Source: Alphaproteobacteria bacterium
GTDB taxonomy: Bacteria; Pseudomonadota; Alphaproteobacteria; UBA828
DNA length: 64,000 nucleotides
Assembly: GCA_965220745.1 (NCBI GenBank)
Contig: CBDCQT010000013.1
Location: forward strand, 960,001-1,024,000
Reading direction: 5' to 3'
Shown: piece by piece, positions 46,140 to 49,275 of the stretch
How positions within the stretch are numbered: the stretch's first letter is position 1
Layout of the letters: the number at the start of each line of letters is the position of its first letter
The notes under the pieces: generated by a model
Told to the model about the DNA's origin: nothing
What the model saw: only the letters and a program-made list of their open reading frames with translations
Databases searched by the model: none
Position numbers and translations under genes: made by a program

Positions 46140-46955
46140 TTACGGCGCGACGGGCGTGAAGTCGGCGTAGGTGAAGGGCTGCGCCTGCGCTCTGAGCCGC
46201 GCCGTTCGCTCCTGCCTGACCGCCTCGTCGTCGACGGACTCCAGGATGAAATCGTCGAGCGGCCCCGGTACGCCGAGCATGGCCTGGATCGCCCGCAGCG
46301 CCCCGGTCTGCGAGCAGGTGCGGAAGCGCCGGCCCTCGGCCCGGATGGCGGCGAGCGCGAGTGGGTCGCCTTCCGGCGCGATGTGGCCGTAGCCGCCAAC
46401 GTAGGTGCTCACAGTCTCCATGGGCTGCAGCAGATCGGGCTCGAGGCGGATGTTGCGAAGCGGGCCGAAGCGGTAGGTGTGGCGGCGGAACTCGGTCTCG
46501 TGCATGCGGGCAAGCTGGCAGTCGTCCAGGCAGGTGATGGCGATGTGGCAGACCGTGCCGGGGGAGGGAGCGAGGGTCGCCGGCACCGCACCGTAACTGG
46601 AGATGTGCGCGGCGTGGACCACGTCAAAGCCGTGGAGCCGCGCTTCGAGGACCGGGAAGACCACGGGCTCGATGGGCGCGAACTTTCGCTGCAATCGCTC
46701 AAGCGCGGCGTTGGCGCCGTAGGCCAGCACCGGCGTGCGCTGGCCGAGGGGCGCAGGGGCGGCGAGCCCGCGTTGGCGCAGCAGGGTGTCGGCCGGCACG
46801 GATCGGCCCTCGACCTCGACCTCCGCCTCTTCCAGCACGTCGCCGAGGGCGTTGAGGCGCCACGCCTCGCCGTCCACGTAGAGGAAGGAATGCCCCGGCC
46901 GCGGGAAGGGATAGCGCTTCGCGGTCGCGACAGCCTCGGCACGGGGTGGGGTCAT
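46140..46955 (-). CDS. hypothetical protein, possible gamma-glutamylcyclotransferase-like fold
   Basis: VLAYGAN, ARLHGF, PATL.P..G, L...QL..M..TE pattern resembles GGCT/AIG2 proteins. Confidence 0.55.
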   Translation of the reverse strand: MTPPRAEAVATAKRYPFPRPGHSFLYVDGEAWRLNALGDVLEEAEVEVEGRSVPADTLLRQRGLAAPAPLGQRTPVLAYGANAALERLQRKFAPIEPVVFPVLEARLHGFDVVHAAHISSYGAVPATLAPSPGTVCHIAITCLDDCQLARMHETEFRRHTYRFGPLRNIRLEPDLLQPMETVSTYVGGYGHIAPEGDPLALAAIRAEGRRFRTCSQTGALRAIQAMLGVPGPLDDFILESVDDEAVRQERTARLRAQAQPFTYADFTPVAP

Positions 46956-47002
46956 GGGCTGCAGCGAACCACCGTCAGCGACTCCGCGTCTCTCTCCACA
47001 CC

Positions 47003-47018
47003 CCGCACCATGGTGCGG
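47003..47018. promoter_or_regulatory. perfect 16-bp palindrome CCGCACCATGGTGCGG
   Basis: lies at -51..-36 relative to the ATG at 47054; CACTTT at -12..-7. Confidence 0.6.
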
Positions 47019-47053
47019 TGCACGGCGCGCCACGGCTGTGTCACTTTCGCGCC

Positions 47054-47536
47054 ATGAAACACGAGCGCACAAACGGCACGACGGGCGGCATGAGCGGGCG
47101 CGCGTCGGCCGGGACACGACTGCCCGCTCTCAGCAACGGCCATCGTTCGCCGGCGGCCAACGGCCGCCACGCTAGGCGGGTGCATGACCTGATCGGTCTG
47201 CACACCGAGGTCGAGCGCGCCGCGGAGCGGTGGGCGGGCGCGCTGGAAGGACGTGACGAGGGACGCACCGACCTTCTCGCGATCGAGACCCTGCGGAAGT
47301 TGGCGCTGGACTGCGCTGCGCGCCTCGGCGAGCGTGAGGAGCCGGTGAAGGCGGAGGAGACCGCGCGCCTTGCGCTCGCCCTGCGCCGCATCGAAAGCGC
47401 CGATAGGCTCAGGCGCGAGCGGGAGCGCATGGCCGCGAAAGCCGCCTCCCGCGACGGTGGGGCCGCGCAAGACGGCGATCTCACGGCAGAGACCGTCTTC
47501 GCCATCCGGCGGACCGCAGAAGGAAATTGCCATTGA
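47054..47536 (+). CDS. orphan phage Mu gp27-like (DUF3486) protein, apparently internally shortened
   Basis: S...RLP, S...GRHARR, LAIETLRKLALD, LALALRRIESA..LRRERE, LTAETV.AIR match my recollection of the gp27 family pattern. Confidence 0.65.
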   Translation: MKHERTNGTTGGMSGRASAGTRLPALSNGHRSPAANGRHARRVHDLIGLHTEVERAAERWAGALEGRDEGRTDLLAIETLRKLALDCAARLGEREEPVKAEETARLALALRRIESADRLRRERERMAAKAASRDGGAAQDGDLTAETVFAIRRTAEGNCH

Positions 47537-47580
47537 CAGGCTGTCGTCGGTGGCTCCCTGGCCGGCCGCCTGATTGCCGC

Positions 47581-47650
47581 GATCCCGCTTCATCCCGACT
47601 TATCCCATTTCATCCCGCCGTATCTCACTTCGTCCCGCCGTATCCGACTT
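47581..47650 (+). repeat. seven tandem imperfect 10-bp repeats with an ATCCC-type core
   Basis: gatcccgctt catcccgact tatcccattt catcccgccg tatctcactt cgtcccgccg tatccgactt. Confidence 0.85.
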
Positions 47651-47766
47651 TCGCGTCGCGCGCAGTGGGGGCGGCGGACCGGCGGCGACAGGTGAGGCGC
47701 GACGCGGCGCGGGCTTGACGGGCGCCGGCGGGTGCCCATGAATGTGAGCCTCCCGCCGAGGTGCCC

Positions 47767-49275
47767 ATGGCCTATCGATCGCTGCGCGACTTCATCGCCC
47801 GCCTGGAGAGCGCGGGCCGCCTCAACCGGGTTTCGGCGCCGGTCTCGCCCCACCTGGAGATGACTGAGATCCAGACCCGCCTGATCGCGGACGAAGGGCC
47901 GGCGGTGCTGTTCGAGAACGTCGTCGGCGAGGACGACGCGCGCCACGACATGCCGGTGCTGGTTAACCTGTTCGGCACGGTGGAGCGGGTCGCCTGGGGC
48001 ATGAACCGGGAGCCCGGCGGGCTGCGCGAGGTGGGCGAGATGCTGGCCTTCCTGCGCCAGCCGGAGCCGCCGAGTGGCTGGCGCGAGGCGGTGGAGATGC
48101 TGCCGCTGCTCAACACGGTGCGCGCCATGAAGCCCCGCACCGTGGGCGGCGGGCCGGTGCAGGAGGTGGTGCTCACCGGCGAGGACATCGACCTCGGCCG
48201 GCTGCCGATCCAGACCTGCTGGCCGGGGGAGCCCGCGCCGCTCATCACCTGGCCGCTGGTGGTGACGAAGGGGCCGAGCCGGTCGCGCATCGACAACTAC
48301 AACCTCGGCATCTACCGGATGCAGGTGACCGGCCGCGACACCACGCTGATGCGCTGGCTCGCGCACCGGGGCGGCGCCCAGCAGCACCGGCGCTGGGGGC
48401 AGGAGAAGCGCGAGCCGCTGCCGGCAGCGGCGGTGATCGGCGCGGACCCCGGCACGATCCTCGCGGCGGTGACGCCGGTGCCGGATACGCTCTCGGAGTA
48501 TCAGTTCGCGGGCCTCCTGCGCGGCCAGAAGGTGGAGCTGGTGCAGGCCAAGACGGTGCCGCTCGAGGTGCCGGCCGAAGCCGAGATCGTCATCGAGGGC
48601 CATGTCAGCCTCGACGACTATCGGGACGAAGGCCCTTACGGCGATCATACAGGCTACTACAACGCGGTCGAGCCGTTCCCGGTGTTCACTGTCTCCGCCA
48701 TCACCATGCGGCGCGATCCGATCTACCTCTCGACCTATACCGGGCGCCCGCCGGACGAACCGAGCATCCTGGGCGAGGCGCTGAACGAGGTGTTCATTCC
48801 GCTGCTGGTCCAGCAGTTCCCGGAGATCGTGGATTTCTGGCTGCCGCCCGAGGGCTGCAGCTACCGCATCGCCGTGGTCTCCATCAGGAAGTCCTACGCG
48901 GGCCACGCCAAGCGGGTGATGATGGCCGTCTGGTCCTATCTGCGGCAGTTCATGTATACGAAATGGGTGATCGTGGTGGACGACGACATCGACGCGCGCG
49001 ACTGGAAGGACGTGATGTGGGCGGTTTCCACCCGCATGGACCCGGCGCGCGACATCACCATCGCCGAGAACACGCCCATCGACTATCTCGACTTCGCGAG
49101 CCCGGAGCCGGGGCTCGGCGCCAAGGTCGGCCTGGATGCGACCACCAAGATCGGGCCCGAGACCAGCCGGACCTGGGGCACGCGCATTCGCATGGCGGAC
49201 GAGATCGTGGAGCGGGTGACGGGCAAGTGGGACTCTTACGGGCTGCCGGGCTCGGGCAAGCCGATCTGGCGGTAG
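47767..49275 (+). CDS. ubiD: UbiD-family (3-polyprenyl-4-hydroxybenzoate) decarboxylase
   Basis: [51 protein letters not shown]. Confidence 0.94.

Follow-up and report, generated by a model that had tools for sequence, protein, structure and literature searches.

We analysed a 64,000-nucleotide stretch of DNA (the window; C13:960001-1024000 of genome G000, an assembly of 13 contigs from an uncultured Rhodospirillales genus), in which a module at 47003-47651 lies between a conserved hypothetical gene and ubiD. By its sequence, this module is one of a genus-specific family of cassettes that join a promoter, a gene for a phage Mu gp27-like small terminase (TerS) and an array of phased repeats. 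We put at about 60% the probability that the window module is a decaying member of a family of small-terminase and pac-like-array cassettes within a domesticated Mu relative that resembles a gene transfer agent (GTA); its membership in the cassette family and the identity of its promoter are held with high confidence. An initial annotation of the window had described a perfect 16-bp dyad, a 160-amino-acid (aa) open reading frame (ORF) and seven 10-bp repeats between the hypothetical gene and ubiD, and all of these were found exactly where it had placed them. It had also called the gene an orphan and the module self-contained, which proved wrong, as eight further genes of the same family (PF11985) are present in G000, along with dozens of dyad blocks and arrays.

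When the module was compared with G000 by BLAST, the dyad region itself was found to be a dispersed repeat. The 21-mer CCGGACCATGGTGCGGTGCAC matched 78 times in G000 with up to four mismatches (20 exact matches and 17 with one mismatch), and 45 promoter copies were defined by no more than three mismatches and an ATG at +51, +52, +55 or +56. A script that classed the regions downstream of these 45 copies assigned 24 to those with at least three phased ATCCC-type cores, 5 to those with two such cores and 11 to those with GGGCC-type arrays, and the other 5 had no array; phased 10-bp arrays are therefore carried by 40/45. The initial annotation had proposed a search for other DUF3486 genes with a dyad at the same offset and 10-mers downstream, and such a family, with its ATG at a fixed offset, is what was found. 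An A/T run followed within 45 nt after the array in 32 of the 40 G000 arrays, whereas the window array, unlike most of the family, lacks one. Short cassettes of about 150-350 bp still open with the first DUF3486 codons (M-x-C/N-E-...) and are thus internally deleted long copies. Within the window, the dyad CCGCACCATGGTGCGG (47003-47018) was matched twice with two or fewer mismatches against 0.06 matches expected from 100 shuffles, and a pattern of three phased ATCCC cores was matched three times against 0.02 expected. The window array (type A, ATCCC core; 47582..47651, + strand), a putative pac-like array for binding of the small terminase, consists of seven 10-bp units, four with a perfect core and three with one change; Tandem Repeats Finder reported it with period 20 and 3.5 copies.

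The 5' part of the cassette has the build of a phage Mu late promoter. When 39 promoter copies were aligned at the ATG to give a profile, the stretch from -53 to -31 was almost invariant, with the sequence CCCCGGACCATGGTGCGGTGCAC; the corresponding block in the window is CCCCGCACCATGGTGCGGTGCAC (47001..47023, + strand). The ATG was a selection criterion for this profile and the -10 positions were not; of the latter, C-12 was conserved in 37/39 copies, A-11 in 39/39, A-8 in 29/39 and T-7 in 37/39, followed by six G+C-rich bases and the ATG. The window hexamer is CACTTT (family pattern CAnnAT; 47042..47047, + strand), separated from the ATG by 6 nt. With the A of this ATG (47054) taken as the predicted start, the dyad, a candidate site for the resident activator, is centred at -43.5 (47010.5), a -10 hexamer is present and a -35 element is absent; furthermore, a generic scan found no sigma-70 promoter with a -35 element in 46900-47800. 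In Mu, Mor is reported to bind a 16-bp element centred at -43.5 (PMC4390567), and the Mu late promoters described in PMC2582627 have a -10 and lack a -35 element. As far as these two papers describe them, the Mu promoters Pm, Plys, PI, PP and Pmom, with Mor and C, are thus alike in the dyad at -43.5, the -10 element and the missing -35 element. Because the -10 hexamer ends 6 nt before the ATG, the usual start would fall on its A, and because no room is left for a ribosome-binding site, the mRNA is predicted to be leaderless. In one metatranscriptome, 7% of the sampled words were present as contigs, and contigs reveal neither start nor strand.

Intact Mu-like prophages of the genus carry one dyad directly after their Mor/C gene (TCGGACCATGGTCCGA in G006:C24, CGGGACCATGGTCCCG in G002:C1 and GCGGACCATTGTCCGC in G013:C6). 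The core GGACCATGG is a perfect dyad in two of the three prophages examined and has one core mismatch in the third; by hand count, CAcaAT or TAccAT stands at the same distance from the dyad in the G006 and G002 prophages. The position of these dyads after prophage Mor/C genes, together with the GGACCATGG core, ties the dyad core to this activator lineage. Judged by its -43.5 geometry, the activator dyad noticed in the initial annotation is very probably a site of the Mu Mor/C kind (PMC4390567, PMC2582627, within what these papers describe).

A Mor/C-family activator is encoded in G000 itself. The region C10:98.5-101.2 kb encodes a repressor with a self-cleaving S24-peptidase domain, a homologue of GemA and a 115-aa protein (C10:100895-101242) that matched phrog_836 'late transcriptional activator' at 7.9e-14 and Pfam Mor with 27.7 bits (cut-off 24.9). 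A six-frame genome scan with Pfam Mor missed this gene, which was recognised through its neighbours. The control region ends after the activator, and host genes follow (ferritin-like, cupin regulator, ABC transporter). In addition, the promoter block precedes a Terminase_6C large terminase gene (motif variant at C10:115862), a Mu-type portal gene (PF06074, 298.8 bits; motif at C10:117324), a run of genes in descending coordinates between C10:9964 and about 1750 (for head protease, scaffold, major head protein, adaptor, neck, tail terminator and major tail protein) and a DUF5675 gene with a holin-like neighbour. These large terminase, portal, head-tail and lysis-like genes are single-copy and stand under the cassette promoter. 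The portal (C10:117375-117430) and head-protease (C10:9913-9786) genes start at TGATG and ATGA overlaps with upstream frames of 17 and 42 codons, respectively. Since both genes overlap these predicted leaderless frames and are not fused to the fixed ATG, the fixed ATG is part of the promoter module, and the arrangement suggests that both genes are translationally coupled to the 17- and 42-codon frames.

The phage gene loci are separated from one another by host genes, and Mu-transposase C-domain matches were found only in open frames of 584 and 570 aa elsewhere in G000 (two identical at C10:141 and 185 kb, one on C1). Conserved, single-copy structural genes that are split by host genes and have no transposition module nearby would be expected if the element were domesticated and GTA-like. 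The intact Mu-like prophages examined in the genus (G006, G002, G013) have a single DUF3486 TerS gene immediately before those for large terminase and portal, contiguously and without arrays, whereas the DUF3486 genes of the cassettes are multi-copy, never lie beside a large terminase and are followed by arrays. No cassette-like array was present in the prophage contig G006:C24 in the three stretches covered (26.5 of 38.5 kb; the contig ends are not phage ends). The initial annotation had suggested that the activator of an infecting phage could switch the module on; an infecting phage is not needed, as a conserved Mor/C-type gene is resident together with terminase, portal and head-tail genes.

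We compared G000 with 20 other genomes of the genus (21 in all). With at most one mismatch, the 21-mer occurs 37 times in G000 and 7-50 times in 17/20 of the others; no match was obtained in 20 genomes from other genera or with a reversed-pattern control. PF11985 is present in 1-14 copies in 17/20 genus genomes, compared to a single copy in 1/28 other genomes of the order. The portal gene is single-copy in 16/20 genomes (84-96% aa identity) and has the motif upstream in 16/16 loci (species) examined; the capsid gene is found in 16/20 (92-100% aa identity) and the activator gene in 14/20 (76-99% identity). Motif, DUF3486, portal, capsid and activator are all five missing from G012, G016 and G017, of which G016 has only a partial portal match of 45% identity. 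G018 has the portal and no capsid match, and no activator match was found in G001 and G007 (92% and 67% complete). For the portal gene, the ratio of nonsynonymous to synonymous substitution rates (dN/dS) was 0.17-0.31 (10 pairs among G003, G004, G005, G008 and G018). The structural genes are thus single-copy, conserved and under purifying selection, as in a GTA. Three portal homologues of about 51% identity in G013 (C8 and C9; L106, L109 and L112), each with one in-frame TAG, may be broken prophage copies.

The window gene itself (47054..47536, + strand) encodes a relative of small terminases. Its 160-aa product matched Pfam PF11985 Phage_Mu_Gp27 with 40.3 bits against a cut-off of 28 (39.4 bits in a six-frame genome scan) and phrog_426, small terminase, at 7.7e-10, and the resemblance to DUF3486/Mu gp27 noticed earlier was thereby borne out; it matched no NCBIfam family. 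Residues 32-154 align with profile positions 40-168 of 173, and the N-terminal helix-turn-helix (profile positions 1-39) is not covered. Relative to the G000 paralogues, about 66 nt (22 codons) are missing, which correspond to helices 1-2 of the helix-turn-helix; the earlier estimate of about 25 aa lost from the DNA-binding region was right in substance. All nine PF11985 genes of G000 match the family significantly, and the match of the eight paralogues begins at profile position 1 (it extends to position 171 in seven and to 132 in one, in frames of 195-366 aa). Six DUF3486 copies are 87.6-93% identical in DNA over 0.65-1.1 kb and are flanked by ordinary host genes, and dN/dS among the long copies (six close paralogues) was 0.17-0.51. 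A predicted structure of a long paralogue (pLDDT 72) had three short helices followed by long helices, which may correspond to the helix-turn-helix and long-helix layout that PMC6854486 leads one to expect of small terminases. With this model, Foldseek placed the P74-26 small terminase at rank 21 (E 2.3), and VIA-align wide returned only generic helical hairpins (Z up to 8.7, residues 105-176). A complex prediction of the large terminase with the window protein, run with no controls, gave a score of 0.13 and a mark of 0.32 and is neutral on binding. The sole Terminase_6C found lies at C10:115.9-117.3 kb, and the window gene adjoins its repeats and ubiD rather than a large terminase. Public protein data contained 33 further clusters of 126-188 aa with 61-79% identity. 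The window ORF is a gp27/small-terminase relative with a damaged DNA-binding head.

To relate the proteins to their arrays, we examined 56 regions from G000 and eight other genus genomes, 48 of which have the motif and an ORF of at least 120 aa, and built a TerS tree of 45 rows (three duplicate loci omitted). All arrays of the main clade (31 rows) are of the ATCCC type or too short to be assigned. A divergent clade of three rows comprises the G000 copy at C10:709858, which has GGGCC arrays, and a pair from G002; of this pair, one or two copies have GTGCC arrays of the same build, in which repeats and an A/T run are followed by one more core. An 11-row clade holds the window protein, one ATCCC copy and nine copies that we call class II, in which the recognition helix is acidic or degenerate (DRSPSAEDRWAE instead of CSRSAVGRYAKN). 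These nine also share an acquired, conserved C-terminal tail and lack an array; altogether, arrays are absent from the 10 copies with such a helix. In the class II copies L120, L125 and L133 (G004, G014), the tail reads ...WPTDPPFCPSEWSGPG and a second promoter block lies downstream instead of an array. In the picture given in PMC6854486, about 100 bp of DNA probably wind round the DNA-binding domains of a TerS ring of 8-11 subunits. An array of 7-10 units, each of one helical turn, would fit this length. The correlation between TerS clade and repeat core makes plausible the link that the initial annotation had drawn between the protein family and the adjacent repeats. That the arrays are TerS-bound, pac-like sites is a tentative assignment, for which we see somewhat less than an even chance.

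We propose the following mechanism. Each cassette consists of (i) a late promoter predicted to depend on a Mor/C-type activator, (ii) a Mu gp27-like TerS gene or its remnant and (iii) a phased 10-bp array, and the cassettes would belong to a domesticated Mu-like set (S24 repressor, GemA, activator, large terminase, portal, head-neck-tail cluster and lysis-like genes) that, being split over several chromosomal loci, vertically inherited and under purifying selection, may be called GTA-like. Once the resident activator is made, all promoter copies would fire; the trigger would be cleavage of the S24 repressor and possibly also a related activator of an infecting Mu-like phage. Full-length TerS proteins would then bind their cognate arrays, with one helix-turn-helix per helical turn round the TerS ring, and the arrays would thereby become pac-like sites, dispersed along the chromosome, at which packaging is initiated. 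In the window copy, the DNA-binding head of TerS has been lost but the coiled coil and the C-terminal region remain, as do promoter and array; these DNA elements may still function in cis, whereas the protein would be at most an accessory or modulating subunit. The broadest form of the proposal, in which an uncultured Rhodospirillales genus would carry an 'exploded' GTA-like Mu genome, with a separate leaderless Mor/C-type promoter for each late gene, and in which approximately 40 dispersed TerS and array pac sites, with at least three specificities (ATCCC, GGGCC and GTGCC), would organise the otherwise random packaging of host DNA, is speculative and in our judgement rather doubtful.

The history of the window site was followed by comparing filled and empty sites upstream of ubiD in the 20 genus genomes. 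This placed the left junction of the inserted cassette at 46990..47002 (+ strand; precision about 10 nt), and the inserted segment spans about 46990-47703. The conserved hypothetical gene starts upstream of this junction (CAT on the + strand at about 46954), and the 3' tail of the segment (47652..47703, + strand) adjoins the conserved promoter region of ubiD (gcgcgggcttgac), which begins at about 47704. At the empty site, found in 11 genomes, the hypothetical gene abuts this promoter about 35 nt from the gene start. The insertion is common to G000, G001, G005, G013 and G008 (5/21), with the ATG at +51 in all. Orthologues of the window protein share 80% (G001), 65% (G005) and 67% (G013) aa identity with it, and that of G008 is 131 aa long after further in-frame deletions. 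Array copy number differs among the orthologous cassettes.

Upstream of purQ, a second site carries the cassette, with 2 to about 28 repeats, in at least 10/20 species and is empty (5-28 nt) in G007, G012, G016 and G017; promoter and array are thus retained over long periods in which the middle decays. The two ends of the cassette are unlike each other (promoter block versus repeat array), and no transposase is encoded in it. At ubiD, purQ and C7:308378, exact insertion boundaries and target duplications could not be defined, as they were blurred by divergence or by flanking repeats that resemble repetitive extragenic palindromic (REP) sequences. At the counterpart of C7:308378, G006 has an empty site with a single REP-like copy, so that loss of the cassette looks like recombination between flanking 135-bp repeats. 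REP-like elements (about 93-135 bp; ctttcatttccctcaa...gggcgc...) are abundant and flank long cassettes as direct repeats; at L002 (G000:C7:306251-309736), copies lie at about 989-1123 and 2211-2345, and many other loci are similar. Interspecies synteny breaks exactly at the promoter block at portal loci L099-L104, where similarity to G000 begins at 117321-117323 in six genomes, and the two flanks of one cassette lie on different replicons in G011 (C2 versus C3). Given these breaks and the separated flanks, the repeats seem to mediate rearrangements.

Several observations weigh against the reading of the cassettes as parts of a GTA-like Mu relative with pac-like arrays. TerS copies cluster by species and not by locus (five copies of G008, three of G009 and three of G014), which implies turnover or gene conversion; such clustering would suit the turnover or gene conversion of a selfish repeat equally well as a host function. 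The pairing of TerS and arrays is correlative and rests on two or three independent core switches, and the window copy breaks the rule by having an array and no helix-turn-helix. Among solved structures, Foldseek gave no match to the long-copy model at E ≤ 0.001 (best 0.73). Mu F had 0 matches in G000, and no tape-measure or tail-fibre gene was found, with no systematic search for these two. Activation by the resident protein and the leaderless start are both predictions. Concerning the window copy, the cassette is missing from G006, G011 and G010, the genomes closest to G000 by ubiD and portal identity; as these relatives keep the structural genes, the window copy is dispensable. Two of the five orthologues have the dyad with three mismatches. 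Additionally, dN/dS of the window gene, a check proposed with the initial annotation, was 0.44-1.02 pairwise over the five orthologues (0.74-2.07 in the first 50 codons, where dS is low, and 0.27-0.88 in the remainder), and every indel preserves the frame. The window frame is kept open but weakly constrained. The window copy is an old insertion and most likely a slowly decaying member of the family, and the probability that its protein has a present function is low.

The cassettes could instead be a selfish, non-autonomous repeat made of long DUF3486 copies and MITE-like short copies (MITE, miniature inverted-repeat transposable element), whose ends serve mobilisation or copying and whose link to the phage genes is only that of descent from one Mu-like phage, without a role in packaging today. 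Both ends are indeed common to long and short forms, presence and absence are polymorphic at the ubiD, purQ and C7:308378 sites, the copies group by species and include the six of 87.6-93% identity, synteny breaks coincide with the motif or the cassette, and G000 is rich in other repeats and integrases. However, no transposase or recombinase is encoded, the protein being a helix-turn-helix with a coiled coil; the ends are dissimilar and the target duplication is undefined at three sites; several sites are orthologous across many species, as at purQ, which indicates long vertical retention; the 5' block is a promoter module shared with single-copy structural genes; and recombination between flanking 135-bp REP-like repeats accounts for the apparent excision at the single young site examined. 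We consider this explanation unlikely.

An anti-phage decoy, as suggested in the initial annotation, appears improbable. The genome has a conserved activator of its own, and its own terminase, portal and capsid genes stand under the same promoter, so that an infecting phage is unnecessary to account for the system. According to the decoy proposal, the cassettes are silent until the late activator of an infecting Mu-like phage switches them on, the TerS variants and arrays poison or misdirect the phage terminase, and the headless window protein acts as a dominant negative. Cross-activation is plausible, as intact Mu-like prophages of the genus share the GGACCATGG dyad core and the -10 spacing with the cassettes; the window protein keeps its oligomerisation and C-terminal parts without the DNA-binding head, and many copies would titrate activator or terminase. 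Yet the window gene is weakly constrained and missing from the nearest relatives, and no defence-gene neighbourhood was seen.

A slightly poorer chance still is given to the window gene being a working small terminase of the GTA type, whose lost DNA-binding domain allows sequence-independent packaging, as proposed for gp1 of the Rhodobacter capsulatus GTA (RcGTA). Although the window protein shares this truncated architecture, its ORF is intact in five species with all indels in frame and public data hold the 33 further clusters of similar length, its dN/dS of 0.44-1.0 stands against 0.17-0.31 for the portal, the gene occurs in 5/21 genus genomes against 17 for portal and capsid, and the G008 copy has suffered further deletions. 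Finally, a solitary decayed prophage scar with chance repeats, which the initial annotation had offered as the simpler alternative and which the truncated, weakly constrained ORF (dN/dS 0.44-1.0) and the lack of other phage genes in the window (PF11985, PF00589 and rve searched) might suggest, is refuted by copy counts, since all three parts recur together about 40 times in G000 and across the genus, with dyad and array far above chance.

Some further features of the window and its genome were recorded. The downstream neighbour of the cassette is UbiD (PF01977, 265.8 bits), and the upstream 325-aa ORF matched no Pfam family above cut-off and no NCBIfam family. An Rfam scan of 46500-48000 at E ≤ 1 gave two chance-level rows only and no known RNA family, and no + strand intrinsic terminator was found between the cassette and ubiD. 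The statement of the initial annotation that the window contains no other phage, integrase or transposase gene holds for the three families searched (0/61 PF00589 matches, 0/21 rve matches and no second PF11985 match fall within it; other families were not checked). The sequence GACCNTGGTGAGAAATGCGGGYTA was considered as the 3' end of the cassette and rejected, as it belongs to another element, a MITE whose inverted ends are spaced by about 223 bp. G000 has 67 such ends, many paired at about 223 bp (for example C10:730194-730417 and C12:626176-626400) and several adjoining cassettes; one end lies in the window at about 22011 (C13:982011). In the purS/purQ intergenic region (L065-L085), a third repeat type with hairpin-like inserts (ccacctccccctgtccccctcccc...ggcggagggg...) stands beside the cassette or replaces it in several species. 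With 61 six-frame tyrosine-integrase domain matches and 17 identical rve transposase copies, G000 is unusually rich in mobile DNA.

Compared with known systems, the gene set is Mu-like also in having a small Mor/C activator beside GemA and a promoter before lysis, packaging and head genes. Unlike Mu, which has 4-5 copies of such a promoter, each genome here has about 45, scattered and each on its own small unit, with a fixed and predicted leaderless ATG 6 nt after the -10 hexamer. In P1 pac and in SPP1 pacL and pacR, short repeated motifs surround the cleavage region at or beside the small-terminase gene, with one site per phage genome. The cassette arrays likewise place several phased short repeats beside a short A/T-rich stretch; they differ in numbering about 40 per chromosome, with 2-28 repeats at orthologous sites, and a pac-like role is proposed by analogy. 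RcGTA consists of HK97-like genes under GafA/CtrA control, whereas the portal here is of the Mu type and control would be of the Mor/C kind; RcGTA has no known sites, whereas sequence-specific-looking arrays and full-length TerS genes have been multiplied here. The two are alike in that phage-derived structural genes are conserved, vertically inherited and distributed over several loci, as PMC5026251 reports for RcGTA and as the gene comparisons show here. We found no description of such cassettes in the accessible portions of the literature on DUF3486, Mu-like gene transfer agents, Mu gp27 and dispersed pac sites.

For the window, these results mean that the module is a dispensable and most likely slowly decaying member of its family and no special device. 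For the genus, the cassette family explains several synteny breaks and, whatever its function, provides a natural set of about 45 promoters per genome that are predicted to be activator-dependent and leaderless. To our knowledge, known gene transfer agents are thought to package without sequence signals, partly through loss of the TerS DNA-binding domain; the opposite seems to have happened here, where sequence-specific TerS genes with their likely binding arrays appear to have been multiplied over the chromosome under the control of a single activator. Should the arrays be packaging starts, they would give a sequence-defined handle on transduction starts at about 40 known sites, and the system would amount to a novel mode of genome export organised by the bacterium itself.

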